Positions 14,285 through 62,280 of a stretch of 64,000 nucleotides of DNA are shown here, in pieces. The notes beneath the pieces are model-generated. The model did not search any database, was not told the origin of the DNA, and saw only the letters and a list, made by a program, of their open reading frames with translations. Made by a program: the position numbers and the translations under genes. This DNA comes from Heliomicrobium sp. Lineage in GTDB: Bacteria; Acidobacteriota; Blastocatellia; RBC074. The first letter of the stretch is position 1. Each line of letters starts with the position of its first letter. The stretch is taken from the NCBI GenBank assembly GCA_021155085.1, contig JAJNQA010000112.1:8378-72377 (forward strand), given 5' to 3'.

Positions 14285-15376
14285 ATGCTGATCTGCCCTG
14301 TCTGCCGTAGCCAGAACATGGACACGGCGAAATTTTGCGGCAATTGCGGAAACCCGTTTCCGCGTCCTTCGATGCCGACATCGTCATTAATCAACTGCCC
14401 GCAGGGACACGTCTACAGTGCCGTGTACCAGTTCTGCCCGTACTGCCCGCAGCCGGAATCCGTGCCACAAATCAGCTCACAGCCTGATTTCGCGACGCGC
14501 ATTGAAGAACCGGTGACGGCCATCGAACCGCCAAGTCCGCGCCCAGTGACGGCGCAGATGGATTTCAGTACGCGTGTCGGAGAACCCTACGCGACGAATT
14601 TTGAAACGCGCATCAGTTCGGCCGAAATCTTTGAAACGCGCCTGAATGAGGTTGAGATCGAAGAGATTTCCATTCCTCCCGCAGGATCTGCCGGCGGGTC
14701 GGCGTCAATCACAACGATTACCGAACCGCCGCCAGCGGCGACCGAAGTCATCTCTTTTCTCGCCCAGACGACGATCTCCGAAATACCGAACGACCTATTC
14801 AAACCGGTTGCCGGATCATCATCCACCACGCTGGAAATACCAATTCCAGCCGTCACGTCACCACCACCACCCCAGGCTCCTCCGGTGGTGGTGCCGACGG
14901 CCGCCTCACCACCACCCTCGGCGCAGACGATCGTCTCGGCGCAAACCATCGTCGCTGATCCCGTGCCAATCGCGGCTCCGGTCAATCAGTTGCAAACATC
15001 GGCTGAAATTGATCGCCGCACGATCATCGTGGCCGATAGCGGCGCGCCGCAATCTTCTTCAAAAGGCAAGATTGTCGGCTGGCTCATCAGTTACAACCGC
15101 AATCCTGACGGTGAGGATTACCGGCTCTACGCCGGCTATAACCGCATTGGCGCAAATCCGGTCTGCGACATAGTGCTTGAAGACGAAACGGTCAGCGGTT
15201 CGCATGCCATCATCGTCTTCCGGGATGGACGATTCCTGATCAAGGACGACCTGTCGCGAAACGGCACTTTTGTGAACAGCCGCGAAATTAACGAGGCACA
15301 TCCGCTTCAAAATTACGACCAGATTCGCATTGGCAATACGTATCTGACGTTCATTGCCGCGCAACGCATCGCCTGA
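14285..15376 (+). CDS. FHA-domain protein with an N-terminal double zinc-ribbon and a Pro/Ala-rich linker
   Basis: CPVCRS...CGNCGN and CPQG...CPYCP zinc ribbons. C-terminal FHA domain (YNRIGANPVCDIVLEDETVSGSHAII...SRNGTFVN). GAGGAGG ribosome-binding site. Confidence 0.8.
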   Translation: MLICPVCRSQNMDTAKFCGNCGNPFPRPSMPTSSLINCPQGHVYSAVYQFCPYCPQPESVPQISSQPDFATRIEEPVTAIEPPSPRPVTAQMDFSTRVGEPYATNFETRISSAEIFETRLNEVEIEEISIPPAGSAGGSASITTITEPPPAATEVISFLAQTTISEIPNDLFKPVAGSSSTTLEIPIPAVTSPPPPQAPPVVVPTAASPPPSAQTIVSAQTIVADPVPIAAPVNQLQTSAEIDRRTIIVADSGAPQSSSKGKIVGWLISYNRNPDGEDYRLYAGYNRIGANPVCDIVLEDETVSGSHAIIVFRDGRFLIKDDLSRNGTFVNSREINEAHPLQNYDQIRIGNTYLTFIAAQRIA

Positions 15377-15385
15377 AGAAAGACC

Positions 15386-15454
15386 GGGAGACTGGAGGAA
15401 AAGGAGAAAGGGGATTGAAAAGCAATTCCCTCTCTTCCTTTCTCCTGGTCTCCC
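15386..15454 (+). terminator. Imperfect inverted repeat about 28 bp long (a purine tract followed by a pyrimidine tract) between the FHA and PP2C genes. Probably a terminator or attenuator-like hairpin.
   Basis: Left arm GGGAGACTGGAGGAAAAGGAGAAAGGGGA, a 12-nt loop, then right arm TCCCTCTCTTCCTTTCTCCTGGTCTCCC. It starts 10 nt after the FHA stop codon. Confidence 0.4.
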
Positions 15455-15493
15455 ATCCTCGCATCCGACCCCCCAAATGCCCACTGACCAAGT

Positions 15494-16258
15494 ATGCGTC
15501 AGCAGATCATCATCGCACATCGCACAGACACTGGACTTGAGCGAAAAGACAATGAAGATGCGATCAGCTACGTCGGCGACGAACGCAGCGGATGTCATTT
15601 AATTGTCCTTGCTGATGGGCTGGGCGGTGCGGCTTGTGGCCAGGTGGCCAGTCAACTTGCGGTGCAGACGATTCGTCAAAGTTTTTTCAGCACGGCGGAT
15701 TCGGAATTTTCAATCCACGATCGTCTCGCGCTGGCAATCGCCGAGGCCAATCGCCTGATCTTCCACCGTTCCACTCATGATCGTCACTGCCGTGGAATGG
15801 GTTCGACGTGCGCTGCCCTGGCGCTGTGTGATGACACGGCCCACGTTGCTCACGTTGGCGACAGCCGTGTCTACCTGCTTCGTGATGGGCGAATACGCCA
15901 ATTGACCCGCGATCATTCACGAGTTCAGCGAATGCTTGATGATGGGTTGATTACTGAAGAAGAAGCTGCAAATCATCCTGACCGCGACTGGCTTGACCGC
16001 GCGCTCGGTTTGCGCGAATACATCCTGCCGGATTTATTGACCGAACCAATTCGGCTGCGCCTGGAAGACACCTTTGTTGTCTGCACCGATGGGCTGACCA
16101 ATCTGGTGCGAGACGAAGAGATTTTTCGCCTTGTCCAGTACGCGCCCACCGCTCATGCCTGCGAAGCGCTGATTGCACTGGCCAATGAACGCGGCGGCAG
16201 CGACAACATCACCGTCGCCATCGCGCGTGTGGGCGCGGACATTACACTTACGTTCTGA
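15494..16258 (+). CDS. PP2C-family Ser/Thr protein phosphatase (Stp-like)
   Basis: RTDTGLERKDNEDA...VLADGLGG...GDSR...CTDGL...GGSDNITV are metal-binding PP2C motifs. Confidence 0.85.
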   Translation: MRQQIIIAHRTDTGLERKDNEDAISYVGDERSGCHLIVLADGLGGAACGQVASQLAVQTIRQSFFSTADSEFSIHDRLALAIAEANRLIFHRSTHDRHCRGMGSTCAALALCDDTAHVAHVGDSRVYLLRDGRIRQLTRDHSRVQRMLDDGLITEEEAANHPDRDWLDRALGLREYILPDLLTEPIRLRLEDTFVVCTDGLTNLVRDEEIFRLVQYAPTAHACEALIALANERGGSDNITVAIARVGADITLTF

Positions 16259-30610: not shown

Positions 30611-31588
30611 CTAACGACGAGGCGGCGGCGGAATCGGTTTCGCACTTGTCAGTTCAATGTACCTGACAAGCAAACTTTCTTTTTTCTCTCGCTCAACAGT
30701 CAGGTAGCGATGTCTGCCTTCCGCCGCATGGTTAAATTTTGTTCGGCCATCGTCGAGCACCTGAATCGAACCGGATGGAGATAGGTTGAAGCTCGGCTCT
30801 TCCGGCGTCACCGCGAACAAGGCAGCCGCCAGCGCGCCGGTCGGCGCATCGAAGGGCATCGTTTTGTAAGCTCTGTACGCATCCGCCACCGGATGCGCGG
30901 GCGACCACGAAAAATCCTTTTCAATACTCGATGCTGGAAAAACCACGCTTTCGCCGACCTCAGTTCCAACGGCGACAACGGGCACAGGCCATTCGGCAAA
31001 GACTTTTTTCATTGCCGCAATGTCCGTCTGAGTGGCGAAATCGGGACGGCGTTCCGGTGAATCTGAAAAGTTACCAGCGGCGATGACCAGGGATTTCGTT
31101 TTTTGGGCGATCAGTTGCTTCGCGCCGGACAGGTTCAGCAAGCGCGCGGCGTTGGTCGCCGGACCGGTGACAACGATGGTGGCGCTTTGGTCCGGCTGGC
31201 TGGCCAGCGCGTTGCGCATCAGCGGCAGCGGATCGGCGGTGTCCGTTAGTTGCTCAATGTTGTGACGGTAAACAGGCGCTCCCTCAGCCGTGAGTTTTGC
31301 CAGCGGAACGGAATTCATAAGCATTTCGCCCCGAAGCTTTGCGGAAGCGAGCAGACCAATCGGCAACGGGTCGCGAACTGTCGCCTGCCGGTAGAAGCGG
31401 CTGATGACGGCGCACATTCGCGCGGCGTTCAATTCCGCCGTGCTGACGCTCAAGGAAAGAATTCGGGCTTCGTTTTTGCCGTCGAAATGGTACAGCAACG
31501 CCAGCGCCAGCGCGTCGTCCGCGCGATGCCCAAAGGCCGAATCGAAAATGACCCCAAGCGGCGGTTTGCCTTTACTTGCATTTTGCAT
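30611..31588 (-). CDS. Nucleoside hydrolase (IU-NH)-like protein with a degenerate aspartate motif
   Basis: VIFDSAFGHRADDALALALL resembles the DxDxxxDD calcium-binding motif of IU-NH, with one Asp replaced. 325 aa. Confidence 0.4.
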   Translation of the reverse strand: MQNASKGKPPLGVIFDSAFGHRADDALALALLYHFDGKNEARILSLSVSTAELNAARMCAVISRFYRQATVRDPLPIGLLASAKLRGEMLMNSVPLAKLTAEGAPVYRHNIEQLTDTADPLPLMRNALASQPDQSATIVVTGPATNAARLLNLSGAKQLIAQKTKSLVIAAGNFSDSPERRPDFATQTDIAAMKKVFAEWPVPVVAVGTEVGESVVFPASSIEKDFSWSPAHPVADAYRAYKTMPFDAPTGALAAALFAVTPEEPSFNLSPSGSIQVLDDGRTKFNHAAEGRHRYLTVEREKKESLLVRYIELTSAKPIPPPPRR

Positions 31589-33852: not shown

Positions 33853-34226
33853 GGTCGAATCTTCACTCCATTATTTGTGCTGCGACGAAAAAAACTCGCG
33901 CCACAGACCAAACCGCACTTGGAAACCCAAGGCAGCACTAAGTAACTGGTGGGAAGTTCGGGGCACTTTTTGTGGAACAAGATGCCATCTTGTCCCACAT
34001 TCGCGGCGCGAATTTTCCGCACCTTACTTAAAACGACAATTTGAGCGCGAATTGAATCTGGCGAGGTGTGTGGATTCCCGCCGTCGCGGTGATCTTACCG
34101 TAGTTCGCGTTTCCGAATGAAGTGTTCGGATGCACGAAAACCGTCTGATTCGGCAAATTGAAGGCTTCGATTGAATGCTTGAACCGGCCTGAGGCGCGGA
34201 CTATGATCCGCGCCGAAGAGGCTTTG

Positions 34227-37200
34227 ATGATCCCCAACAATTACGAACTCATCCAATACCTTCCGCTCAACGATTGGCAATGGTTTGCCCGTGGGCGGCG
34301 CATTTCCAGCGGCCAATCAGTGCTGCTCAAATCGCCACGCAGGGAAAGTCAGGGAGAAGGCGAACTGCTCGAACGCGAATTCGAATTGCTGCGCCAGCTT
34401 TCCGTGACGGGCATTCCCCGCCCGCTGGAGTTACTCGACACGGACAACGGCCTGTGCCTGGTGCTGGCTGACGGCGGCGTGCCGCTGCCGTCAGCCTTTC
34501 CGGCTGGCCGCCTGGAGTTGAAGACCTTTTTCAAACTCAGTCTTCAATTGGCGAACATTCTGGCCGAACTGCACCAGCGGGACATTATTCACCGAAACCT
34601 GAACCCGCGCGGCATTTTGCTGAATCCCGCAACCGGCGAAGTCTGTCTGGCGGATTTGAGCCTGGCGGTGCGCGCGGCGGATGAAATCCAGGAAGCGCTG
34701 CCAGCCCATCTGCTGCGCGGGATGCTCGCGTACGCTTCGCCGGAATTGACCGGAAGAATGAATCGCGCGGCGGATTACCGCACGGACTTTTATTCTCTGG
34801 GAATCACATTTTATGAATTGCTGACAGGCCGGTTGCCGTTTGATTTCACGGACCCGCTGGAATTGATTCACGCGCACATTGCCAAAACGCCGGAACCGCC
34901 CGCCAAAATTGATTCGCGGATTCCCGAACCGCTTTCCGAGATCATCATGAAGCTGCTGGCGAAAACCGCGGAGGATCGGTATCAAAGCGCACTCGGGTTG
35001 CGCGCCGACCTGGAAACCTGCGCCCGTGAATGGACCACGCGCGGACAAATCGAAGCATTCAAACTGGGCCGGCGCGATGTCCCGGATCGCTTCCTGATTC
35101 CACGGAAACTGTATGGCCGGGAGCGGGAAGTAGCGGAATTGCTCTCTGCGTTCGAGCAAACCTGCGAAGGCCGGACGTCAATGATGCTGGTGGCGGGTTA
35201 TTCCGGCATCGGCAAGACCTCGCTGATTCAGGAACTCTATAAACCCATTGTCCGCCAGCGCGGATATTTCCTTTCCGGCAAATTCGATCAGGTGGCGCGC
35301 AGCGTTCCCTTCGGCGCATTGATTCAGGCTTTTCGCGGTCTGGTGCGGCAACTGCTCGGCGAAAGCGAAGAGCAGCTCGCCCGCTGGCGCGCCCGATTGT
35401 CCGAAGCGCTGGGCTCAAACGGAGGCGCGCTGGCCGAGGTGATTCCGGAAATCGAACTGATCGTCGGCAAACAACCTTCGCCGCCCCGCGTCGGGCCGGC
35501 CGAAGCCTTGAATCGCTTTCAACTCATCTTTCAAAAATTTGTCTCCGCGATTGCCCAGCCCGGACGGCCGTTGGTGATCTTTCTAGATGACCTGCAGTGG
35601 GCGGACGCCGCAACCCTGAGCCTGCTTCAGCCTTTACTGTCCGGCGCTGACATTCAATCGCTTTTCCTGATGGGTGCATACCGCGACAACGAAGTGGATG
35701 CCGCTCATCCGCTAACGCGAACGCTGACTGCGCTGAAATTAGCGGGCGTTGAAGTACGCAGCATTTCTCCGGGGCCGTTACAGCTTCCCGAGCTGACGAA
35801 CTTCGTCACCGACACGTTGCGCTGTAAATTTGCGGAAGCTGCGCCACTGGCCCGGCTGGTTTGGGAAAAGACCGCCGGCAATCCGTTCTTCGTCATCCAG
35901 TTTCTGAAAACGCTCAAACAAGGAGATCTGCTGAAGTTCGATTATGAGCTTGGCCGCTGGACCTACCGCCTGGAAGACATCGTGAACGCGGGCGTCACCG
36001 ACAATGTCATCGCGCTGATGACGCAGAAGATTCAGCGGCTTTCCACCGAGGCGCAGCGCGCGTTGACGCTGGCCTCCTGCATTGGGAATTCCTTTGACCT
36101 GCCGACGCTGGTCATCGTCAGCGAACAATCGCCGGAAGACGCAGCGGAAGCGTTGAAAGAAGCAGTCGAGGAAGGATTGATCCTGCCGGTGGTAGAAGAA
36201 GACGGAGGGATGGGGCGACGGGGGGACGGGGGGACGGGGGGATCAGTGGAGATAGTAAAAGATGGAACAAATGATTTGTCTTTTTCGCCCCGTCGCCCCG
36301 TCCCCCCGTCCCCCCGTCCCAGTGCCTTCCCATCCCAATCCTACGCGTTCCTGCACGACCGCGTGCAGCAAGCCGCTTACGCACTGATTCCCGAAGAATG
36401 GAAGCAGCTTGTTCATTTGGCCGTCGGGCGATTGCTGCGCGACGGTTCCCCGCCGGAAGAACTCGAAGAAAAACTGTTCGACATCGTTCATCACCTGAAT
36501 CTGGGCAGCGGTTTGATTGTCGAAGCGTCTGAACGGCTGGCGCTCGCCCGCCTGAACCTGAACGCGGGACGGAAAGCGAAATCGTCAACGGCTTATGAAT
36601 CGGCGCGGGAGTATTTTCAGGCGGGCGCGGCGCTGCTCGGCGAAGAGCATTGGGCAACCGAGTACGAACTGGTTTTCGCGCTGCAACTGGAACTGGCCGA
36701 ATCCTTGCGCCTGTGCGCAGAGTTCATTGAAGCGGAAGCCGCGTGCGAACCTCTGCTGCGGCGCGCGCGGACCAAACTGGATCAAGCCCATGTTCACAAC
36801 CTGCACATTCTTCAATACGAAAATCAGTCGCGATATGCGGACGCGATGGTCAGCGCGCGCCGCTGCCTGCCGCTTTTCGGCGTCGCGTTTCCTGATTCCG
36901 CTGATGAACAAGAGTCCGCGCTGGAACGCGAGATTGCGACGATTCAGTTTTTGCTGGATGACCGCCCGATTGCCGCGCTGATCGAACTGCCGCTGATGAC
37001 CGATCCGGAAATCAAGATGGTTATGAACCTGCTGACGACGATCTGGTCATCGGCGTATATCTCCGGCCAGCAGGCGCTGACCCGGCTGATTTCCGCCACC
37101 ATGGTGCGCCTGTCGCTGATTCACGGGAATGTGGAAGAGTCCGCCTACGGTTATGTCACGCACGCGATTACCGTCGGCCCGGAGCGCGCGGATTACAAAT

Positions 37201-40200
37201 CAGCTTATGAATTCGGTTTGCTGGCGCTGCGGCTGAACGAACGGTTCAACGATTCGCGGCTGCGCGCCAAAATTTACCAGCAGTTTCAGGCGCACGTCAT
37301 GCCGTGGCGGCAACCGCTCGAAACCTGTCTGACTTATGCGCGAAAGGCGAGCCGCAGCGGATTTGAGAGCGGCGATTTTGCTTATGGGATTTATGGCGCG
37401 TTCACCGAAACCTGGACGGCCCTGGTCATTGCGCAAGACCTGGGCAAGTTCGTGCTCGAATATTCGCCCAATGTGGCGCTGTTCAAAAAGCTGAAAGCCG
37501 AGGCCATCGCCGATGGTCAGCAAATCCTGCTGAACTGGGCGCGCGCCCTGCGTGGCGAAACCAATGCGCCGCTGTCGCTATCGGACAAAAACTTCGATGA
37601 AGCGGAATACGTCCGGCGTTATCGCGGCAATCCGTTTTACACGATGTTTTTCGCGGCGGCGAAACTGCACCTCAGTTACCTGCTGGGGGAATACAAGCAG
37701 GCGCTGGAAGCTGCCCGGCAGGCGCGCGAAATCGTCCATCACCTGTCCGGAACCATCTGGACGGTTTTCTTCGATTTCTGGAATGGCCTGACCCTGGCCG
37801 CAAATTACGCGGAAGCTTCGGGAGAAGAACAAACGAAGCACCTTCTGGAATTGAAACGCGCGCGAAATTCACTGGCACTGCTGGCGGAAAACTGCCCGGA
37901 AAATTTCCGCTGCCAGTCACTGCTGCTTTCGGCGGAATGCGAGCGCATCGCCGGTCAGGAAAATCAGGCAGCCAACTTGTACGAGCGCGCCATCCGCCAG
38001 ACTGAAGAAACAAACGCCATCCAGTATCGTGCCCTGGCCAACGAGCTTTACGCGCGGTTTCAAACAGTGGCCGGGCAGGAAACCGCCTTGGCTCCGCTGC
38101 TGGCTGAAGCCCAGGCTTGTTACGGACGATGGGGCGCGGCAGCCAAAGTGGACCAGTTGAATCAACAATCTCCCGGGTGGGACAGGCTTCAGTCTGTCTT
38201 CAGCCGCGAAGGAAGCGTACGAACTGAAATCCGTTCCACAGCGGACGCAGGCGCGCTTGATCTCTTCAGCGTTGTAAAAGCCTCTCAGGCCATCGCCAGC
38301 GAAATGGAATTGGAGCGATTGCTGGCCCAACTGATGCGCATTGCCATTGAAAACGCCGGCGCGGAGCGTGGCTGTTTGCTGCTGGAACGCGGCGGCGACT
38401 GGTTCGTTCAGGCGGAAGGCTCCGTGAACGATGCGGAGGTGACGTTGCACGATGCATTGCCGCTCGGCGAATCCGCGAACCTGTCTTTAAGCATCGTCAA
38501 CTATGTCCGCCGAACTTCGGAGGGCGTCGTTCTGACGGAAGCGGCAAGCGACGACGGTTACGGCAACGATCCCTACATCGCGCGCTGTCAGCCGCGTTCG
38601 GTGATGTGCGCGCCCGTGCTGCGTCAGGGCCGCTTGATCGGCGCGCTGTATCTGGAAAACAACATCGCCGGCGGCGCCTTCACCGAAGCCCGCATTCAGA
38701 TCATTCAACTCCTGGCCGCGCAGGCTGCGATTTCTCTGGAAAACGCCCGGCTGTATCGCGAAATGCAACTGGCGGAATCCACGCTGCGCTCGGTGATGGA
38801 AGGCACTGCGGCAATGACCGGCGAGGATTTTTTCCGTTCAATGGTGCGGCATCTGGCCGCCGCCATTCCAGTCAAAATCGCCTTCGTCACGGAATGCGCC
38901 AACGTCCAGAAGACCCGCGCGCGAATGCTGGCTTTCTGCGACGGCAAGGGCCTGGCCGAAAATTTCGAGTACGACGTCAAGCACACCACCTGCGAAAAAG
39001 TCTACGAAGGCCACACCTGCACCTACGCCAGCGACATCCAGAAACTGTTTCCCGAAGAACCGGCGCTGCTGGAATTGGACGGGCAGAGTTACATCGGCCT
39101 GCCGCTGCACAGTAAAGCCGGGGAACTGATCGGCCATCTGGCGGTGATTGACGACAAGCCGATGGATCAGGGGCGCAGCAGTTCTATTCTGGACGTTTTG
39201 AAAATTTTCGCCGCCCGCGCCAGCGTCGAACTGGAACGCACGAAGGCCGAAGCCGAATTGCGTCTGGCCATGCAAGAAATCGAAAGGCTGAAGAACCGGT
39301 TGCATGCAGAAAACCTTTACCTGCAGGAAGAAATTCGCCGCGAACACAATTTCGAGGAAATCGTCGGCGGCAGTCCCGCCCTGCTGGAAGTGCTGCAACA
39401 GGTCGAGCGCATGGCGCCCACCGATGCCACGGTGTTGATTCTGGGCGAAACCGGAACCGGCAAGGAATTGATCGCCCGCGCCATTCACGACCGCAGCCCG
39501 CGCCATTCGCGCCCGCTGGTCAAGGTGAATTGCGGCGCGATTTCCGCCGGACTGGTCGAAAGCGAACTCTTCGGCCACGTCAAAGGCGCATTCACCGGCG
39601 CGCTCGATAAACGCACCGGAAGGTTTGAACTGGCCGATGGCGGCACATTGTTTCTGGATGAAGTCGGCGAACTGCCGCTGGAAACGCAGGTCAAACTGCT
39701 GCGCGCCCTGCAGGAAGGCGAATTCGAGCCAGTCGGCAGCAGCAAAACCATCAAAGTCAATGTCCGAATCATTGCCGCCACCAACCGCAATCTGGAAGAC
39801 GAGGTCAAAGCCGGACGCTTTCGCGCCGATTTGTTTTACCGCCTGAATGTGCTGCCGCTGCACAATCCGCCGCTGCGGGAGCGCCGCGCGGATATTCCGC
39901 AACTGGCAATGTTCTTTCTGTCGCGTTTTGCACGGCGGTTCGGCAGATCAATCAACGGCATTTCGCAGGAAACCATGGAACGGCTGATGAATTACAACTG
40001 GCCGGGCAACATCCGCGAACTGCAAAACCTGATTGAACGCGGCGTGGTGCTCAGCAACGGTTCGGCGCTGACGATTGACCGCAACCTGCTGCCCGCCGCG
40101 CAGACAACCGAAATCCAGCCTAAATCCGCAATCCAAAATGAAGTTCCGCCGGCAGTTCCCATTTCGCTGGATGACTTGCAACGCCAACATATTCTCAATG

Positions 40201-40322
40201 CCCTGGCGCAAGCCAACTGGGTGATCGAAGGTGAAAACGGTGCCGCCAAGCTGCTCAATTTGCATCCGAACACGCTGCGCAGCCGATTGAAAAAAATGGG
40301 AATTCAGCGTCCCAAACTTTAA
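34227..40322 (+). CDS. Giant (~2030-aa) signalling protein: Ser/Thr protein kinase - AAA_16/STAND ATPase - helical (TPR-like) region - 2x GAF - sigma-54 interaction AAA+ domain - Fis-type HTH
   Basis: Kinase motifs ([20 protein letters not shown]). Walker [16 protein letters not shown] domains around aa 1370-1700. bEBP motifs [14 protein letters not shown] and ESELFGH. C-terminal [15 protein letters not shown]. Start is at 34203 or 34227 (AAGAGG ribosome-binding site before 34227); the ORF track start is 34158. Confidence 0.85.
36212..36320. repeat. In-frame 109-bp palindromic insert inside the giant gene. A G4-motif arm and a mirrored C-rich arm flank a 46-bp AT-rich spacer.
   Basis: 36212-36241 GGGGCGACGGGGGGACGGGGGGACGGGGGGG (four or more G-runs). 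36288-36320 CCCCGTCGCCCCGTCCCCCCGTCCCCCCGTCCC. The spacer GC is about 30 %. Translation is [12 protein letters not shown]...[12 protein letters not shown], a low-complexity linker. Confidence 0.7.
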
Positions 40323-40356
40323 GTCTGAATCGCGGGTATTCTGCCCCCACTAGATG

Positions 40357-40417
40357 CCCACGAAATTTCGCGGGAGCGAGTTCCATAGCCACGAACCAAC
40401 CCACGAAATTTCGCGGG
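40357..40417. promoter_or_regulatory. Two copies of a near-palindromic 18-bp element (CCCACGAAATTTCGCGGG) spaced 43 bp apart. Candidate enhancer (UAS) for a bacterial enhancer-binding protein.
   Basis: Repeat 1 at 40357-40374 and repeat 2 at 40400-40417. Each is one mismatch from a perfect palindrome. They lie about 90-140 bp upstream of a sigma-54 promoter. Confidence 0.5.
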
Positions 40418-40499
40418 CACAGCATCTCCGCCAGCAATCTGCAATAACAATCTCTTCATTTTCAGCAAGTTGAAGAATATCAACCCACGCATTCCGTCG

Positions 40500-40515
40500 T
40501 GGCATCGCTATTGCA
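40500..40515 (+). promoter_or_regulatory. Sigma-54 (RpoN) -24/-12 promoter
   Basis: TGGCAT-CGCTA-TTGCA matches TGGCAC-N5-TTGCW, with the GG and GC dinucleotides correctly spaced. It is 36 bp upstream of the STAS gene's ATG, which has an AGGAGAAGGAG ribosome-binding site. Confidence 0.55.
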
Positions 40516-40550
40516 AATTCGCCAGTGTAAGCAGGAGAAGGAGAGAATCA

Positions 40551-40820
40551 ATGCTTCGAATTGCGGAAGAAAAAGGGACTGATGGTTCAACGATCTTGCA
40601 ACTGGATGGACGCATTGCCGGTCCCTGGGTGGAGGTGTTGCGCGCAAGCTGCGAACGAATTTCCCAGGAAAACAGCCGAGTGGTTCTTGATTTACTCGGC
40701 GTCAGTTTCGCGGATCACGTCGGCGTAAGATTTCTTCAGCAACTCGATCAACAGCAAATCGCGCTCATCAATTGCTCGCCGTTTTTACAGGAGCAAATGA
40801 AATTGTCTATGACCGAGTAA
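40551..40820 (+). CDS. STAS-domain anti-sigma-factor antagonist (SpoIIAA-like)
   Basis: MLRIAEEKGTDGSTILQLDGRIAG...VVLDLLGVSFADHVGVRFLQQL. 89 aa. Confidence 0.7.
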   Translation: MLRIAEEKGTDGSTILQLDGRIAGPWVEVLRASCERISQENSRVVLDLLGVSFADHVGVRFLQQLDQQQIALINCSPFLQEQMKLSMTE

Positions 40821-40894
40821 AAGCACGGTCCCCATAAACCCAAGTCAAACCAATTTTATTTCCGGCCTGGATTCGGGCCGAGGAGGGTAGAACT

Positions 40895-41434
40895 GTGTCC
40901 GTCCCACAAACGCTCGACGAATTTGAAAGCATCGCCATGCAGCATATGAATGACCTGTACCGGTCGGCGCGGCGCACACTGGGCAGTCAGACCGAAGCCG
41001 AAGACGTGGTGCAGGAAACGTACCTGCAAGCCTGGAAATCATTTCATCGTTTCGAGCCGGGCACCAACATCCGGGCGTGGCTGTTCAAGATCATGTTTCA
41101 TGTCATCAACCATCATCGCCGCAAAACGTACCGGCTGGTGACACTGAAGGAGGAAGAAGAGTTTATGTTCGAGCAGATGACCTATGAACCGCCGGTTTCG
41201 CCGGAGTTGCGCGACGAAGACATTCTGGCTGCGCTGGATCGCGTGCCGCAGAATTTTCGCGCGGTGATTTTGCTGGCGGACGTGCAGGAGTTTTCTTACA
41301 GGGAAGTGGCCGAAGCGCTTGGCATTCCGATTGGAACGGTGATGTCCCGGCTGAATCGCGGGCGGCAAATGCTCCGCGCACATCTGGCCGGTTTCGCCCC
41401 CGGGACAAAAATTCAGGCCGCGTTTGCGGCCTGA
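40895..41434 (+). CDS. ECF-subfamily RNA polymerase sigma-70 factor
   Basis: Region 2 VVQETYLQAWKSFHRFEPGTNIRAWLFKI. Region 4 FSYREVAEALGIPIGTVMSRLNRGRQMLR. Confidence 0.85.
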   Translation: MSVPQTLDEFESIAMQHMNDLYRSARRTLGSQTEAEDVVQETYLQAWKSFHRFEPGTNIRAWLFKIMFHVINHHRRKTYRLVTLKEEEEFMFEQMTYEPPVSPELRDEDILAALDRVPQNFRAVILLADVQEFSYREVAEALGIPIGTVMSRLNRGRQMLRAHLAGFAPGTKIQAAFAA

Positions 41435-41438
41435 AAAC

Positions 41439-42803
<1,365 letters not shown>

Positions 42804-43814
42804 TCTACACTCCGCTGGCGGCCAGTGTTTCGGTGGCCGCCGCCGCCATTTCCACCTTGGGCAGCCAGATTGTAAATACAGCGCCGCCTTCAACCAGCAT
42901 GGCAGCCAGCATGGCAGCCAGCATGGCGGCCAGCATGGCGGCCAGCATGGCGGCTTCGATGAAACCGCCAGGCTCTTCCACGATACGGCGCGATCCGAAA
43001 TCAGAAGCACTGAAAATGGCTTGCCGTCTCGCGGGAATCCCTGTTCCGAAACTTTGACACGCAAATGGCCGCCTATTTTCATTGCCTGCACGACATTCAA
43101 ACAAATATTCATCAACACCTGATGCAGTAACTCTCCGTCCGCAAGAATCCGCTCCTGGCTGTGAGCAAGACACTCTAGCTGAATTCCTGACTTCGCGGCG
43201 CCGTCTTCGATCAACTCAAAAACGCCCTACACCAATGAAGCGGCGTCCACCGGTTCGCAATGATTACTGAACGGACTCCCCAGATTCAGCAGTTCCCGCA
43301 CGATGCGGGCAATGAACATCGGCCTGATGATTGATGCTTGACAGATTGCGTTCGACTTTTTCGCACGGCGTATCCGTGCGTTCGCGCAATAGTTCGATGC
43401 GGCCCTTGATGACATTGCGCGGCGCGCCCATCTCGTGCGCGACGCCCGCGGCCAGCCGTCCCAGCGAAGCCAGCCGTTCGGCCTGCAGCAGTTGCTGTTC
43501 CAGCGCCAATCGCTCTTCCGCCGCCTGGACAATGGCCTGACGCTGTTCGCCCAGCCGATCCGCCATCCGGTTGACAGCGAAAACTCATTCCAACGGCCCG
43601 GCACGATGACGCGGTAATTCAGGTCGCCTTCGCCCAGCGCCGCCGCGCCCGTCAGCAACTCCTTGATTGGCCGCGCCAGATTCGTGCGCATCACCACCAG
43701 CACGCCCAGCAAAATTACCGCAAACAGCGTCAAGGTGAGCAATGCAATATCGCGGCGCGCGCGCGAAATCAGCCCGGATGAGCGAGCGCGGCTGCGTGAT
43801 TTCAAATGCCCCAC
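42804..43814 (-). pseudogene. Degraded sensor histidine kinase (TM + HAMP + HisKA + HATPase_c split across two frames, with an internal stop)
   Basis: HAMP in frame A (43227-43814). HisKA H-box [12 protein letters not shown] in frame B (43264-43566). HATPase N-box NICLNVVQAM back in frame A after a TAG at 43227. G2/C-terminal part FGTGIPA...GGAVFTIWLP in frame B (42805-43173). That implies at least 3 frameshifts, plus what looks like a truncated sensor N-terminus. Confidence 0.5.
42894..42953. repeat. 12-bp tandem repeat CCAGCATGGC(A/G)G x5 inside the kinase remnant
   Basis: Five contiguous units. They translate as AAML x5 (kinase frame), PPCW/LPCW x5 (RR-ORF frame) or MAAS x5 (plus strand). 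Confidence 0.8.
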
Positions 43815-57466: not shown

Positions 57467-57690
57467 AAAAATAGAATATGCCCGGCACTGACATCGCGGA
57501 GTTACAGACAGAGATTCGTATTATCCACGTTCCCCTGCCATCTGAAATGGTGAACTTCGGCTCTATTTTTCAAATGGCAGAGCTGCCCCCCCTTGTTTGT
57601 AAGGCGCGAAACATGTAAAGTTCAGTCCTCCCTAGAATTCAAAAAAATACCCTAAACCACTCATCACAAATTTTCGGAGTAGTTTTATTG

Positions 57691-59523
57691 ATGAGCAGAC
57701 CAAAAGCTCGCCTGCGGCCGGAGATCAAGGAATTCCCCAAAACTTCAACAGGCAACAATGGCTTGGATGAGATTACCAGCGGAGGTTTGCCCCAGGGGCG
57801 GCCGACGCTGGTTTGTGGCGGAGCCGGATGCGGAAAAACACTTTTCGCCATGCAGTTTCTGTTGAAGGGCGCGCTGGAATATGACGAACCTGGCGTGTTT
57901 ATGGCCTTTGAAGAAACGGCGGAAGAACTCGCGCAAAATGTCTCGTCGCTCGGATTCGATCTTGAGGACCTGATTCAACAAAAGCAGATCGTAGTTGATC
58001 ACGTGCATCTGGATCGCCGCGAGATTCACGAAACCGGAGAGTTCGATCTGGACGGACTGTTTGTCCGGCTCAATTACGCAATTGACGCAATTGGAGCCAG
58101 GCGCGTGGTGCTGGATACCATCGAGACGCTTTTCAGCGACCTGCCCAACGAGACGACACTCCGCGCCGAATTGCGCAGGCTTTTCCGATGGCTGAAAGAC
58201 AAGGGCGTGACCGCCATCATCACAGCCGAACGCGGCAGCGGGACGCTGACGCGTTACGGGTTGGAAGAATACGTTTCCGATTGCGTCATCCTGCTGGATC
58301 ATCGTGTGGAAAACCAGCTTTCCACACGCCGAATTCGCGTCATTAAGTATCGCGGCTCCACCCACGGCACGAACGAATATCCGTTCCTGATTGATAACGA
58401 CGGCATTTCCGTCCTGCCAATCACGTCGCTGGGTTTGTCGCACCAGGCAGTGTCGGAGCGGATTTCGACCGGTGTTGAGCAGTTGGACGAAATGCTCGAA
58501 GGGAAAGGCTATTTTCGTGGCAGCAGCGTGCTGATCTCCGGCACCTCCGGCACGGGCAAAACCAGCCTGGCCGCGCTGTTTGCCGCCGCCACCTGCCAGC
58601 GTGGAGAGCGTTGCCTGTATCTGGCCCTGGAAGAATCGCCGAGCCAGGTGATGCGCAACATGCGCTCCATTGGCGTGGATTTGGATCACTGGGTGAAAAA
58701 AGGACTGTTGCGATTTCAGGCGGCCCGTCCGACTGCATACGGCCTGGAAATGCATCTGGCGATTGTGCATAAAACCATCAATGATTTTGCACCGCGCGTC
58801 GTTGTCGTTGACCCGGTGACGAATCTGATGTCGGTCGGCAATGTGGATGAAGTCAAAGCCATGCTGACCCGGCTGATTGATTTTATGAAAGGGCGGCAGA
58901 TTACAGGGCTTTTCACCAGTCTGACTGACAGTGAAGGCGAGCAGGAAAGGACGGATGTCGGTATCTCTTCATTGATGGACACCTGGATTCTGCTGCAAAT
59001 GATCGAAAGCAACGGGGAACGCAACCGCGGGCTGTACGTGCTCAAGGCCCGCGGGATGGCGCACTCCAATCAGATTCGAGAATACAAGATGTCGCGTCAG
59101 GGAATTGAATTGGTTGAAGCTTATCTCGGTTCGGCCGGTGTGCTGACGGGTGCGGCGCGGCTGGCACAAGAGGCCAGGGAGAAAGCCGAGGCGCTCAATT
59201 ATCAACAGGAAATAGAACGAAAACGCCGCGAGTTGGAACGCAAACGGAAAGCGCTGGAGGCACAGATTGCTCTCTTGCGGGCGGAGTTTGAATCCGAGGC
59301 GGAAAACCTGCTCAGACTGGGCCAGCAAGAGTCGGAGCGGGAAGAAATGATCGGGCGCGCACGGTCGGAAATGGCGCGCATTCGCTATGCAGCTCCCCCG
59401 CAAAACATTACGCAAGGAGAATCTGATGGCATCCTCAACCAAAAAGGTGAGCGCAAAAAAGCGGACAAAAACCACTCTTCCGGGCGGCCTTCAAACGGCC
59501 GTTCAAACAGACGTCCAAAATGA
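57691..59523 (+). CDS. kaiC: KaiC homologue (double RecA-like ATPase) with a ~90-aa C-terminal coiled-coil extension
   Basis: CI Walker A GGAGCGKT and CII Walker A GTSGTGKT. Phosphosite-region [14 protein letters not shown]-terminal [28 protein letters not shown] coiled coil. ATG at 57691. Confidence 0.9.
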
Positions 59524-59800
59524 TGAAATCTGGCGATTACGGCTGTATGTCGCCGGACAAACGCCCAAATGTTTGAAAGCATTCGCCAACCTGAAACAGA
59601 TTTGCGAAGACCACCTGGCAGGCAAGTATCAAATCGAACTGATTGATTTGCTGGTCAATCCCCAACTGGCCCGGGGCGATCAAATCCTGGCCATCCCCAC
59701 CTTGGTTAGAAAGCTGCCGGAACCGGTCCGGAAAATCATCGGCGACCTCTCCGACGCCGAGCGCGTACTGGTCGGACTTGACCTCCGGCCGATTCAATAA
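59426..59800 (+). CDS. kaiB: KaiB homologue (copy 1, with an N-terminal Lys-rich extension)
   Basis: [26 protein letters not shown]...[31 protein letters not shown] ribosome-binding site. Overlaps the kaiC 3' end by 98 bp in another frame. Confidence 0.85.
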
Positions 59801-59824
59801 ACGCTCCCCGGCCAAGGACCTTGT

Positions 59825-60169
59825 ATGGCGACGATGAACACATCACAAGAAACTCTCGCCGACTTTGAAGAGTCATTGGAAAAGTCGAAAAATGAGATGT
59901 ACGTGCTGCGGCTGTACGTCAGCGGCGCTTCTCCGAAGTCCTCGCGCGCGATCCTGAACGTCAAGAAAATGTGCGAAAAACGCCTGGCGGGCCGCTACGA
60001 ACTGCAAGTAATTGACGTTTATCAAAAAACCACGCTCGCCGTCGGCGAGCAAATCATTGCCGTCCCCACACTCATCAAAAAGTTGCCCGAACCTTTACAG
60101 AAACTGATTGGGGACATGTCCAACGTCGAACAGGTGTTGCTGGGCATGGATTTGCTTCCCAAAGCCTAG
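59825..60169 (+). CDS. kaiB: KaiB homologue (copy 2)
   Basis: YVLRLYVSGASPKSSRAILNVKKMCE...IIAVPTLIKKLPEPLQKLIGDMSN. Confidence 0.85.
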   Translation: MATMNTSQETLADFEESLEKSKNEMYVLRLYVSGASPKSSRAILNVKKMCEKRLAGRYELQVIDVYQKTTLAVGEQIIAVPTLIKKLPEPLQKLIGDMSNVEQVLLGMDLLPKA

Positions 60170-60180
60170 AGAAGAAGCAC

Positions 60181-62280
60181 ATGAGCAGAGTCGAGACGTC
60201 GCCAATGCCGCGACCAGGGTATGAAGAGCTTGAAGCGCGGCTGTTGGAAGCCGAAGAAACATTGCGAGCCATCCGTTCCGGGGAAATTGATGCGCTCGTC
60301 GTCTCAGGACCGGAAGGCGAGCAGATTTACACGCTGAAGACGGCGGAGCATCCTTACCGCGTCCTGGTCGAAGCGATGAATGAGGGAGCCGTCACGCTCA
60401 ACCAGGACAGCACGATCCTCTATTCCAATCAGAGCTTCGCCAATCTTCTTAAAATTTCGTCCGAACGGGTTCTCGGCTCTACATTCAGCCAATTCGTCGC
60501 TCCCGCCGACCGGTTGCGGCTGGAGGCCCTGCTCTGTCAGTGTGCGAATAAAGCGGCAAAGGGCGAGATCACACTGGTCTGCGGAGACGGTAGCGAGGTC
60601 CCGGCGCACCTTTCCTTAAGCCCGCTCCCTTCGGAAGAAGTGCAAAGTGTCAGCGTCGTGGTCACCGATCTGACCGAGCAAAAGCGGCAGCAGGAACTGG
60701 TTGCGTCGGAAAAACTGCTGCGCTCCATCCTGGAGCAGGCGGCGGAGGCGACGGTGGTTTGCAATGAATACGGAATCATCATTCACGCCAGCCGCAGAGC
60801 CTATGAGCTTTGCGGCTGCAATCCGGTGCTGCATTCTTTTGATGAGGTGTTGCCACTATGCACCTCCTCGCCGGAGAGCGAATCCAGGCGGGAGAGCCTT
60901 TCCTTCTCAGCCATTGTCGAGAGCAAGGAATTGCAGGGAATGGAAGCGGTTTTTGATCGCGCTGATGGCCAGGTCATCAATCTGTTGCTGAGCGCGGGAC
61001 TGGTCCTGGACTTCCAGGGAAAAATGCTCGGCTGCGTCGTCACCATGCGGGACATCACACGGCGCAAGGAGGCGGAGGCGGAGCGCGAGCGGATGCTGAT
61101 GCGCGAGCAAACACTTCGCATCAAGGCCGAAGAAGCGAGCCGCCTGAAGGACGAATTCCTGGCCGTCGTTTCGCACGAACTGAAGACGCCGCTGAACGCC
61201 ATCTACGGCTGGGCCGAAATGCTGCGCGGCGGCCTGCTCTCTGCCGCGCAGGGGCAGCAGGCCATCGAAACCGTTGCCCGCAACGCAAAGGCGCAGGGTC
61301 AGATTATTGATGATCTGCTCGATGTATCGCGAATCATTACGGGCAAGATGCGGCTCAACACGAAGAGCCTTTCACTGGCCAATGTCATTGAGGCTGCCGT
61401 CGAAACCGTCCGTCACGCTGCTGAAGCCAAAAAAATCCGGCTCGAAGTAACTACCGATCCTGAATTGGGACCGGTGATGGGCGACGTTGACCGCCTGCAA
61501 CAAATCGTCTGGAACCTGCTTTCGAATGCGATCAAGTTCACCCCCAAAGGCGGCCTGGTGCTGATCAAAACCATTCAGGTGGGTTCCCAGGTCGAAATTA
61601 ACATCAGCGACAATGGCCAGGGCATCAAACCCAATTTTCTGCCTTATGTTTTCGACCGCTTCCGGCAGGAGGACGCAACGACCAAAAGGCAGCACGGCGG
61701 TTTGGGTTTGGGCCTGGCGATCGTGCGCCAACTGGTGGAATTGCATGGCGGAACGGTGCATGTCGAGAGCGCCGGAGAAGGACAAGGCGCGACCTTCACC
61801 ATCTCGCTGCCGGTGCCTGGGAAAAACTCCGGCGCGCTTCATCGAGTTGACAGACTGAATGGGAAAAGTGTTGCCCCTGCCCTATCCGAGACCCTGGCCG
61901 GAATCATTTCGGGAATTCGTGTGCTGTTGGTGGACGACGAACTGGACACGCTCGTGCTCACCGCCCTGATCCTGGAAAGAGGCGGCGCGGAGGTCAGGAC
62001 GGCAGACAACGCCGCCGAAGGCTATCTCTTGTTTTCTGAATGGAAGCCCGATGTCATCGTCTCGGACATCGGCATGGCGCACGAAGACGGCTATGACTTT
62101 CTACGCCGTGTGCGAGAGCAGGACAAAATCGTTCCGGCCGTGGCGCTGACGGCTTATACGCGCACCGAAGATCGCATCCATGCATTTTCAGCCGGCTTCC
62201 AGATGCACGTTTCCAAGCCGGTTGAGCCGAAGGAACTGCTGACGGTGGTCGCCAGTCTGACCACCCTCAACAAAAAATAA
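60181..62280 (+). CDS. Hybrid sensor histidine kinase (coiled-coil - 2x PAS - HisKA - HATPase_c - C-terminal REC)
   Basis: H-box VVSHELKTPLNAI. G-boxes DNGQGI and GGLGLGLAIV. Receiver LLVDDE...DVIVSDIGMA...K. 12 bp downstream of kaiB-2. Confidence 0.85.
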   Translation: MSRVETSPMPRPGYEELEARLLEAEETLRAIRSGEIDALVVSGPEGEQIYTLKTAEHPYRVLVEAMNEGAVTLNQDSTILYSNQSFANLLKISSERVLGSTFSQFVAPADRLRLEALLCQCANKAAKGEITLVCGDGSEVPAHLSLSPLPSEEVQSVSVVVTDLTEQKRQQELVASEKLLRSILEQAAEATVVCNEYGIIIHASRRAYELCGCNPVLHSFDEVLPLCTSSPESESRRESLSFSAIVESKELQGMEAVFDRADGQVINLLLSAGLVLDFQGKMLGCVVTMRDITRRKEAEAERERMLMREQTLRIKAEEASRLKDEFLAVVSHELKTPLNAIYGWAEMLRGGLLSAAQGQQAIETVARNAKAQGQIIDDLLDVSRIITGKMRLNTKSLSLANVIEAAVETVRHAAEAKKIRLEVTTDPELGPVMGDVDRLQQIVWNLLSNAIKFTPKGGLVLIKTIQVGSQVEINISDNGQGIKPNFLPYVFDRFRQEDATTKRQHGGLGLGLAIVRQLVELHGGTVHVESAGEGQGATFTISLPVPGKNSGALHRVDRLNGKSVAPALSETLAGIISGIRVLLVDDELDTLVLTALILERGGAEVRTADNAAEGYLLFSEWKPDVIVSDIGMAHEDGYDFLRRVREQDKIVPAVALTAYTRTEDRIHAFSAGFQMHVSKPVEPKELLTVVASLTTLNKK

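Follow-up and report, generated by a model that had tools for sequence, protein, structure and literature searches.

We analyzed a 64-kb stretch of a Heliomicrobium sp. contig assigned to the Blastocatellia (Acidobacteriota; GenBank assembly GCA_021155085.1, contig JAJNQA010000112.1), hereafter called the window; all positions are those of the whole stretch. Near its middle lies a gene for a giant sigma-54 activator of the bacterial enhancer-binding protein (bEBP) type, followed by two copies of a palindrome, a predicted sigma-54 promoter, a gene for a single-domain STAS protein, and a gene for an extracytoplasmic function (ECF) sigma factor. We propose that these elements form a self-contained cascade, from giant activator to sigma-54 promoter to STAS-ECF operon, and we regard this explanation as a whole as probable. 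That enhancer, promoter, and operon make up one cis-regulatory architecture is, judging from the comparisons below, very likely. An earlier note on this DNA had listed the giant open reading frame (ORF), the two palindromes, the promoter, the STAS and ECF genes, and a convergent NtrC-type gene, and all were found where it placed them (Table 1). The enhancer, −24/−12 promoter, and operon geometry that it proposed is upheld by a footprint of 22 regulatory regions, by palindromes restricted to the regions upstream of STAS genes, by a scan of metagenome DNA, and by a recognition helix that tracks the site.

The giant protein has the sequence features of a sigma-54 activator. For its ORF, ATG 34203, which has GAGG 9 nt upstream, is a better start than the TTG that opens the longest frame; it is likely the true start and gives a product of 2,039 aa. 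Pfam assigned Pkinase (residues 47 to 276), AAA_16 (317 to 503), GAF (1384 to 1527), Sigma54_activat (1735 to 1901; PF00158, E = 6e-76), AAA_lid_14, and HTH_8 (2004 to 2046), while NCBIfam returned no specific family match for the protein. The AAA+ module carries Walker A GETGTGKE, Walker B LFLDEVGE, and GAFTGA, the last of which is found in 28 of the 29 orthologues checked, with GAFSGA in the remaining one. The complete sigma-54 activator module and Fis-type helix-turn-helix (HTH) that the earlier note saw at the C terminus are therefore both present. By these sequence criteria (AAA+ domain, GAFTGA, and an HTH with upstream sites), the protein is a bEBP of the NtrC/NifA class, with DNA binding and ATP-dependent activation as its predicted activities.

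The two 18-mers, both CCCACGAAATTTCGCGGG, are identical and 43 bp apart. No other match occurs in the window at up to three mismatches, and four matches were reached in none of 100 shuffles. The earlier note had suggested looking in other Acidobacteriota for this palindrome upstream of sigma-54 sites, and it was found there at fixed distances: in related loci, the centers of gCCCACGA-N4-TCGTGGGc palindromes lie 92 to 96 bp and 133 to 138 bp upstream of the −24 GG, and the spacing between the two palindromes is conserved at 42 to 43 bp. At up to one mismatch, CCACGA-N4-TCGTGG has 59 sites in 1.35 Mb of related loci, 56 of them within 330 bp upstream of a STAS gene.

At 40500-40515, 83 bp past the proximal palindrome, lies TGGCATCGCTATTGCA (TGGCAT-N5-TTGCA). 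The GG and GC of this predicted promoter are 10 nt apart, and 35 nt separate it from the STAS ATG; the earlier note was right about a STAS gene 3′ of the promoter, but its ATG is at 40551 rather than 40552 and the gap is 35 nt rather than 36. Transcription is predicted to start near 40526. About 45 loci of several phyla (L001 to L042, L045, and L083) have a TGGCAY-N5-TTGCW element 27 to 46 nt ahead of the STAS ATG. No sigma-70-like promoter was found in 40250-41550, no conserved promoter of ECF or sigma-70 type was found between STAS and ECF among the aligned loci, and Rfam gave no match in 40250-41000.

For phylogenetic footprinting, we aligned 22 regulatory regions (alignment A2; mean column identity, 55%). 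Sharply conserved blocks alternate with variable DNA: the distal palindrome with CCACGAA half-sites, the proximal palindrome, an A/T-rich block, TCGTGGCAY-N5-TTGC, and the leader with its ribosome-binding site. GTGG and TTGC are invariant at the promoter. In the palindromes, the arms are constant in sequence while the central four bases vary, as would be expected if a protein binds there but not for an RNA hairpin. The A/T-rich block between enhancer and promoter may be a DNA-bending or integration host factor (IHF)-like site. We also observed that the −24 element is nearly always preceded by TCG (40497-40502; A2 columns 147 to 153), so that an enhancer half-site, TCGTGG, extends over the −24 GG; promoters of this clade may prefer such a sequence, or the activator may contact the promoter here.

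Enhancer and promoter are also retained at STAS-ECF loci where a Kelch-repeat protein replaces the activator upstream. That they are kept where the upstream gene is no activator makes them part of the STAS-ECF operon rather than of the giant gene's 3′ end. In this Blastocatellia lineage (L001, 3037-3993; L002, 4855-9768), the enhancer comes after a gene for a 1,637-aa Kelch/He_PIG protein, and behind the ECF gene lies an IS110 transposase; by its gene order, the locus is rearranged with enhancer and promoter kept.

The sequence of the HTH covaries with the site. A recognition helix, LHPNTLRSR(L/M)KK(M/L)GI, is constant in the loci that carry CCACGA palindromes. All 25 loci with the helix HP(N/S)TLRSR have a best site at zero to three mismatches, 23 of them at no more than one. 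Four loci have other helices (HPNTLRHR or KRTTLNSK); none has a site at one mismatch or fewer (best, two to five), and one of the four has a symmetric variant, CCCACCA-N4-TGGTGGG. Since helix tracks site, and since the convergent NtrC-type regulator has a different helix and is absent from the other loci, the upstream activator, through its HTH, is the best candidate to bind the palindromes.

The cassette is not peculiar to this genome. Close relatives of the STAS protein are few, and all come from metagenome-assembled genomes of Blastocatellia; on their contigs, an ECF gene follows STAS every time, and most have a same-strand sigma-54 activator directly upstream. A scan with the STAS alignment, one genome per species, gave 80 loci, whose upstream proteins we typed by tblastn with parts of the giant protein. 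The full pseudokinase-STAND-GAF-activator form stands upstream of STAS in L003, L008, L010, L012, L014, L016, L017, L018, L022, and L069, the last from Anaeromyxobacter; the orthologues in all of these except L018 were measured at 1,980 to 2,085 aa and are directly upstream. Elsewhere, shorter activators (555 to 1,184 aa) with the same AAA+ module and HTH have PAS, GAF, PAS plus GAF, or two GAF domains as inputs. STAS-ECF pairs without an adjacent activator occur in L001, L002, L006, L007, L026, and L032. A metagenome scan for palindrome plus promoter, made at the DNA level alone, gave 120 stretches, in 95 of which the first ORF is a member of the STAS family; an ECF gene comes next in 75 of these 95, and an activator is upstream in 76 of the 81 with enough flank. 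By these sequence counts, at least 200 genome and metagenome loci carry the cassette, which is widespread in soil bacteria. In one locus (L029, 10246-10448), the STAS-ECF spacer is 201 nt long, with CACGGGG direct repeats facing CCCCGTG repeats; spacers elsewhere are short.

The STAS gene is preceded by a strong GGAGAAGGAGAG ahead of its ATG. An AlphaFold2 model of the protein has a pLDDT of 89.7, and its best Foldseek matches are SpoIIAA in complex with SpoIIAB (1th8_B) and RsbV with RsbW (6m36), at TM scores of 0.75 to 0.79; NCBIfam gave it no specific family. At the start of helix 2, where the DSSG motif supplies the phosphorylatable serine, the window protein reads FADHVG, with histidine at the serine position. 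Across 23 homologues, this position holds H, Y, Q, F, R, or A but in no case S or T, and in proteins fused to a sigma factor it holds P, L, or R. No gene for an anti-sigma serine kinase or a PP2C phosphatase lies in the window cassette, and none is conserved in the related loci examined. With the phosphorylatable serine missing from all 23 homologues, no conserved gene after ECF, and STAS and ECF joined in natural fusions, the canonical anti-anti-sigma role that the earlier note had given this protein is not supported.

In at least three lineages, such fusions are encoded directly behind the same enhancer and sigma-54 promoter. One is a 296-aa protein of Rokubacteria (L048, 10001-10891), and fusions of 273 to 347 aa were found in 18 metagenome loci that fall into two clades (L086, L091, L093, L115, L117, L119, L125, L133, L135, L136, L140, L141, L153, L157, L161, L169, L177, and L179). 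Their N-terminal 84 to 87 residues match the whole STAS family profile (E = 1e-21 to 1e-26), and sigma-70 regions 2 and 4 come after. A protein search returned about 25 clusters with STAS_2 plus sigma-70 regions 2 and 4, one of which carries the name of Candidatus Acidoferrum; ECFs of about 225 aa that are 80 to 88% identical also occur without the fusion. Fusion and fission of the two genes suggest that STAS works directly with the sigma factor, and we put the chance that it acts directly on the ECF at about even. A fusion of STAS to a kinase in Acidobacteriaceae (L038) was considered and rejected: the genes are separate, and the appearance comes from the length of a T-run. Compared with L030, a one-base difference in this run, about 235 nt after the STAS start, shifts the C-terminal frame of STAS and yields an apparently longer ORF; it is probably a homopolymer sequencing error.

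The ECF protein matches TIGR02937 at 93 bits, above the cutoff, and has no C-terminal extension; no specific NCBIfam equivalog was found, the nearest model, SigH_actino, scoring below its cutoff. The acidic motif of region 2.2 is retained as EAEDVVQE. No conserved gene, for an anti-sigma or otherwise, follows ECF in 82 loci, and in the window the next gene is convergent. By the definition in PMC8999054, the sigma factor is, on gene order, noncanonical, having no cotranscribed anti-sigma. With neither an anti-sigma gene nor a conserved internal promoter, it fits the class of transcriptionally regulated ECFs. ECF43 proteins are activated by phosphorylation; they are defined by loss of the acidic DAED motif of region 2.2 and have an active Ser/Thr kinase gene adjacent (PMC8999054). 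Control of this kind, with the neighboring kinase phosphorylating the ECF, was considered and rejected here because the kinase domain is catalytically dead and the acidic motif is kept. A small hairpin precedes the ECF ribosome-binding site, and hairpins at equivalent positions recur in L003 to L037 with some compensatory changes (GCCGGCTC/GAGCCGG, GCCAGCTC/AGCTGG, and GCCGGCGC/GCGCCGG). The covariation score of this helix, which was drawn by hand, was reached by 1 of 500 shuffles, and RNAalifold predicted no structure for the region; the support is modest, and the hairpin may set the STAS:ECF ratio.

The N-terminal part of the giant protein does not look like an active kinase. The kinase fold is present (PF00069, E = 3.9e-19) and aligns to PknB structures. 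Its catalytic loop, however, reads HRNLNPRG against HRDVKPAN in PknB (consensus HRDLKPxN), so that the loop Lys and Asn are lost too; DLS stands in place of DFG, and LNDWQ in place of the glycine-rich GxGxxG. The HRD aspartate is missing in 10 of 10 full-length orthologues, while the β3 lysine and the αC glutamate are retained. Judged by these residues, the domain is a conserved pseudokinase and not an active Hanks-type Ser/Thr kinase. Sensing by phosphotransfer is thus unlikely, and the Ser/Thr kinase input that the earlier note envisaged was not borne out. About 800 aa without an assigned domain follow the STAND NTPase. The conserved domain directly before the AAA+ module, which has no Pfam match, also occurs in short activators (about 700 aa) of the same family. 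The pseudokinase-STAND module looks like a nucleotide-dependent scaffold, or like a switch ahead of the GAF-gated AAA+ domain.

We propose the following mechanism. The giant protein would act as a cytoplasmic signal integrator in which the pseudokinase, the STAND NTPase, the long unassigned region, the GAF domain, and a second, unassigned sensor-like domain gate an AAA+ activator of the NifA/FhlA class. Its Fis-type HTH, as dimers, would bind the two CCCACGA-N4-TCGTGGG palindromes near −117 and −160, on the same face of the helix, and the adjoining CCACGAA half-sites would probably help to template the active hexamer. The DNA would loop across the conserved A/T-rich block, and the hexamer would spend ATP to open the complex of sigma-54 holoenzyme at TGGCAT-N5-TTGCA, giving a bicistronic STAS-ECF mRNA that begins near 40526. 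The retained acidic region 2.2 motif and the lack of a cotranscribed anti-sigma suggest that the ECF is controlled mainly by being made, much as HrpL is. STAS, which serine phosphorylation could not switch, would act directly on the sigma factor made with it, as an inhibitory or a stabilizing partner, and would add a second checkpoint; in some lineages it would be the sigma factor's own N-terminal domain. We postulate, more tentatively, that this amounts to an unrecognized mode of ECF control combined with a two-input gate, in which a nonphosphorylatable SpoIIAA-like domain, encoded upstream or fused N terminally, binds sigma directly and no anti-sigma kinase takes part. This broader idea is possible, and we consider it somewhat less probable than its opposite.

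Several observations weigh against parts of this proposal. The promoter match is by itself unremarkable: TGGCAC-N5-TTGCW with one mismatch occurs three times in 64 kb, with 3.3 expected, and the promoter therefore draws its weight from position and conservation. The dependence on sigma-54 and the binding of the palindromes are put forward from sequence comparison. A search for the RpoN box gave no match in the window or across the 2 Mb fetched from related loci; two GAFTGA activators in the window would nonetheless imply that the genome encodes sigma-54. No terminator was found after the stop codon of the giant gene, and read-through from that gene into the operon is therefore possible. In a mirror-tree comparison of STAS, ECF, and AAA+ over 23 loci, the pairwise correlations are all 0.87 to 0.89, and the partial correlations are 0.38 for STAS-ECF and 0.48 for STAS-AAA+, so that ECF did not come out ahead of the activator as the protein coevolving with STAS. 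An AlphaFold2 model of a natural fusion (26 homologues; pLDDT, 44; pTM, 0.31) was too poor to use. Finally, a STAS gene of this family also opens sigma-54-linked operons in which the second gene encodes a histidine kinase, a CRP/FNR regulator, or a resistance-nodulation-division (RND) efflux pump, so that the partner of STAS may not be the ECF in general. The second gene is a soluble, sensor-less histidine kinase in Acidobacteriaceae (L030, L031, L033, L036, and L040) and an RND efflux system in Nitrospira. In these lineages the activator is upstream or, in Nitrospira, a few genes away. The STAS-first operons with a varying second gene further comprise those of L041, L065, and L083 and, for Nitrospira, those of L043 and L049 to L085.

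The variability of the second gene fits another reading, in which STAS is a feedback modulator of the upstream activator instead of a partner of the ECF and the promoter drives its own governor first and a variable cargo second. Activator-STAS adjacency does persist through Acidobacteriota, Rokubacteria, Planctomycetota, Gemmatimonadales, and Anaeromyxobacter while the gene after it changes, and the partial correlation of STAS with AAA+ is not below that with ECF. However, STAS is fused to ECF in three lineages, no fusion of STAS to an activator was seen, and STAS and ECF stay linked in the six loci that have no adjacent activator. We consider the feedback reading unlikely, though still a serious competitor. 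Classical partner switching would have an unlinked kinase of the SpoIIAB/RsbW type hold the ECF, with STAS as the anti-anti-sigma and a PP2C phosphatase to reset it. The structures closest to the STAS model come from just such complexes, and a PP2C gene is present in the window at 15494-16258. Against this stand the phospho-site, which is never Ser or Thr, and the want of any conserved kinase or phosphatase gene in the loci examined; the PP2C gene in the window is 25 kb away and paired with a gene for an FHA protein. We therefore think partner switching improbable.

Two further alternatives concern the palindromes. The convergent response regulator might bind them in place of the giant protein, as the earlier note had allowed: its receiver, AAA+, and HTH_8 domains make it a complete enhancer-binding activator, and its gene lies 900 bp from the promoter. 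No other locus has it, however; the genes after ECF there are an IS110 transposase, dehydrogenases, and others, and its recognition helix is unlike the one that tracks the palindrome; we hold this to be very unlikely. Lying just past the stop codon of the giant gene and able to form hairpins, the palindromes could also be RNA-level or repeat elements, such as a terminator of that gene or repetitive extragenic palindromic (REP)-like sequences, and not enhancer sites. Yet no T-run follows them, and conserved arms around a varying center are the reverse of hairpin covariation. Their distance to the promoter is constant, they accompany STAS even where another gene lies upstream, and they have no other copies in the window and almost none elsewhere in the related loci searched; we consider an RNA or repeat origin extremely unlikely. 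Binding of the palindromes by the giant protein remains our preferred reading.

Table 1. Features of the giant activator and STAS-ECF region (positions in the window).
Feature	Position	Strand	Basis or remark
Giant sigma-54 activator (bEBP) gene	34158..40322	+	Longest ORF, 2,054 aa from TTG
Pseudokinase domain, aa 47-276	34296..34985	+	Pfam Pkinase; alignment to PknB structures, 10 orthologues
STAND-type NTPase (AAA_16), aa 317-503	35106..35666	+	Walker A GYSGIGKTS, Walker B VIFLDDLQW
GAF domain, aa 1384-1527	38307..38738	+	Pfam
Conserved domain without Pfam match, aa ~1540-1720	38775..39317	+	Directly before AAA+ module; tblastn 55-87% identity across loci
AAA+ sigma-54 interaction module with lid, aa 1735-1975	39360..40082	+	Pfam; GAFTGA, Walker A/B
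Fis-type HTH, aa 2004-2046	40167..40295	+	HTH_8
Distal enhancer palindrome CCCACGAAATTTCGCGGG (putative)	40357..40374	.	Center ~ −160 from predicted transcription start
Extra CCACGAA half-site between palindromes	40389..40395	+	One to three such half-sites in runs, conserved in aligned regions
Proximal enhancer palindrome CCCACGAAATTTCGCGGG (putative)	40400..40417	.	Center ~ −117 from predicted transcription start
Conserved A/T-rich block (TAAyC..CCTT..TTTTCAG..TTAAA), between enhancer and promoter	40437..40480	+	Conserved block in A2
Predicted sigma-54 promoter TGGCATcgctaTTGCA	40500..40515	+	GG 40501-2, GC 40513-4
STAS gene, 89 aa	40551..40820	+	Pfam PF01740; SpoIIAA-like fold
Intercistronic hairpin, directly 5′ of ECF ribosome-binding site	40862..40881	+	68.5% of cells paired; changes on both sides in 5 of 7 pairs
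ECF sigma gene, 179 aa	40895..41434	+	GTG start; sigma-70 regions 2 and 4 only, PF04542 + PF08281
Hairpin at end of ECF gene	41412..41435	.	T-run on minus strand; marks operon end
Convergent NtrC-type regulator	41439..42803	-	Receiver, AAA+, HTH_8 domains

Some neighboring features deserve mention. With its T-run on the minus strand, the hairpin at the end of the ECF gene would be the terminator of the convergent regulator gene. The sensor kinase gene expected upstream of that regulator looks broken (42804-43814, minus strand). A HAMP fragment forms a separate ORF (43227-43814), and a stretch like a HATPase N box continues in frame into the regulator ORF; after it come 5.1 tandem copies of the 12-nt unit CCAGCATGGCGG (42894-42954), which read PPCWPPCW and so on. 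A pseudogene, slippage in the repeat, or faulty assembly could account for this. About 150 nt upstream of the HAMP ORF lies a second sigma-54-like site, TGGCAGCGGAATTGCT (43976-43961, minus strand), and the neighboring kinase/regulator operon may itself be sigma-54 dependent. A third consensus match, at 31494-31509, falls inside a nucleoside hydrolase gene and is probably due to chance. The PP2C gene adjoins a gene for an FHA-domain protein with an N-terminal zinc ribbon (14285-16258), a Ser/Thr phosphorylation signaling pair 25 kb from the cassette with no evident link to it. The stretch 57688-62280 encodes a double-domain, KaiC-like ATPase and, after it, a PAS hybrid histidine kinase that carries a receiver; the two may form a KaiC-based, clock-like signaling pair.

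Parts of this design are familiar from other bacteria. The cassette resembles SpoIIAA/SpoIIAB/sigma-F and RsbV/RsbW/sigma-B in the STAS fold and in the genetic tie between STAS and an alternative sigma factor. In contrast to those partner-switching systems, it has no phosphorylatable serine and no anti-sigma kinase or PP2C gene, and its STAS is sometimes fused to the sigma factor. BtrU/V/W, with the ECF BtrS, is a further partner-switching system, in Bordetella. Feedback of an operon product or partner on the activator is known for PspA on PspF and for HrpV on HrpS. PspF/PspA offers a design analogy for feedback by a first gene product, although PspA is not a STAS protein and contact between STAS and the activator is not evidenced here.

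The wiring from activator to ECF, which the earlier note believed had not been described experimentally, has a precedent in the plant pathogen Pseudomonas syringae, where HrpR/HrpS act through sigma-54 on hrpL, which encodes an ECF32 protein (PMC8999054, PMC5263251). Both systems have an enhancer-binding activator, a sigma-54 promoter, and an ECF product without an anti-sigma that is, or in our case would be, controlled mainly by synthesis. The likeness to HrpL lies in being transcribed by sigma-54 and carries no claim of ECF32 membership. HrpR/S have no sensory domains, whereas the cassette has a pseudokinase-STAND-GAF giant or PAS/GAF inputs, a STAS that precedes the ECF or is fused to it, and a home in another lineage. 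A STAS gene, too, is known to be driven by an activator through sigma-54: in Vibrio fischeri, SypG acts through sigma-54 on sypA, and this first gene of the operon encodes a single-domain STAS protein whose direct target is unknown (PMC4517449, PMC8256260). There too, a sigma-54 activator with a defined enhancer induces an operon headed by a single-domain STAS gene. SypA, however, has a phosphorylatable Ser56, a dedicated kinase/phosphatase (SypE), and a polysaccharide cargo, while here the serine is absent and the cargo is an ECF sigma. Borrelia burgdorferi has a three-tier cascade to an alternative sigma factor, from Rrp2 through RpoN to RpoS (PMC4014564). The output there is RpoS and not an ECF, the enhancer architecture is different, and no STAS protein is known to take part. 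ECFs with fused regulatory extensions include CorE and the SnoaL type of ECF41; these extensions are mostly C terminal, and none is a STAS domain (PMC8999054). In some lineages our system is likewise a single chain, but the STAS domain is N terminal and both split and fused forms exist. The main text of the 2021 ECF reclassification does not mention STAS, and in the literature we found no description of the combination of STAS, sigma-54, and ECF or of N-terminal STAS extensions of ECFs. What appears to be undescribed is thus this combination, together with the enhancer motif, the pseudokinase-STAND input, the nonphosphorylatable STAS, and the split and fused STAS-ECF arrangements.

Acidobacteriota are among the most abundant soil bacteria, and to our knowledge their regulation is almost unstudied. 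The cassette offers a fully specified, testable circuit, with an enhancer motif of 16 to 18 bp, a promoter and its predicted start, an activator helix that tracks the motif, and an output sigma factor, and it may be viewed as an acidobacterial counterpart to the HrpL paradigm. It also presents a bacterial pseudokinase-STAND module as the putative input to a sigma-54 activator. Split and fused STAS-ECF proteins, absent from current reviews of either family, suggest that sigma factors may be controlled in a new way, and they may give a handle on the role of nonphosphorylatable single-domain STAS proteins, a question that is open even for SypA. If the mechanism that we favor is right, the cassette would be a two-input gate in which a sigma-54 activator with interchangeable sensors (pseudokinase-STAND-GAF or PAS/GAF) times the synthesis of the sigma factor and STAS sets its activity, and in other phyla this STAS module would have been put to further use in gating histidine kinases, CRP-type regulators, and efflux pumps.

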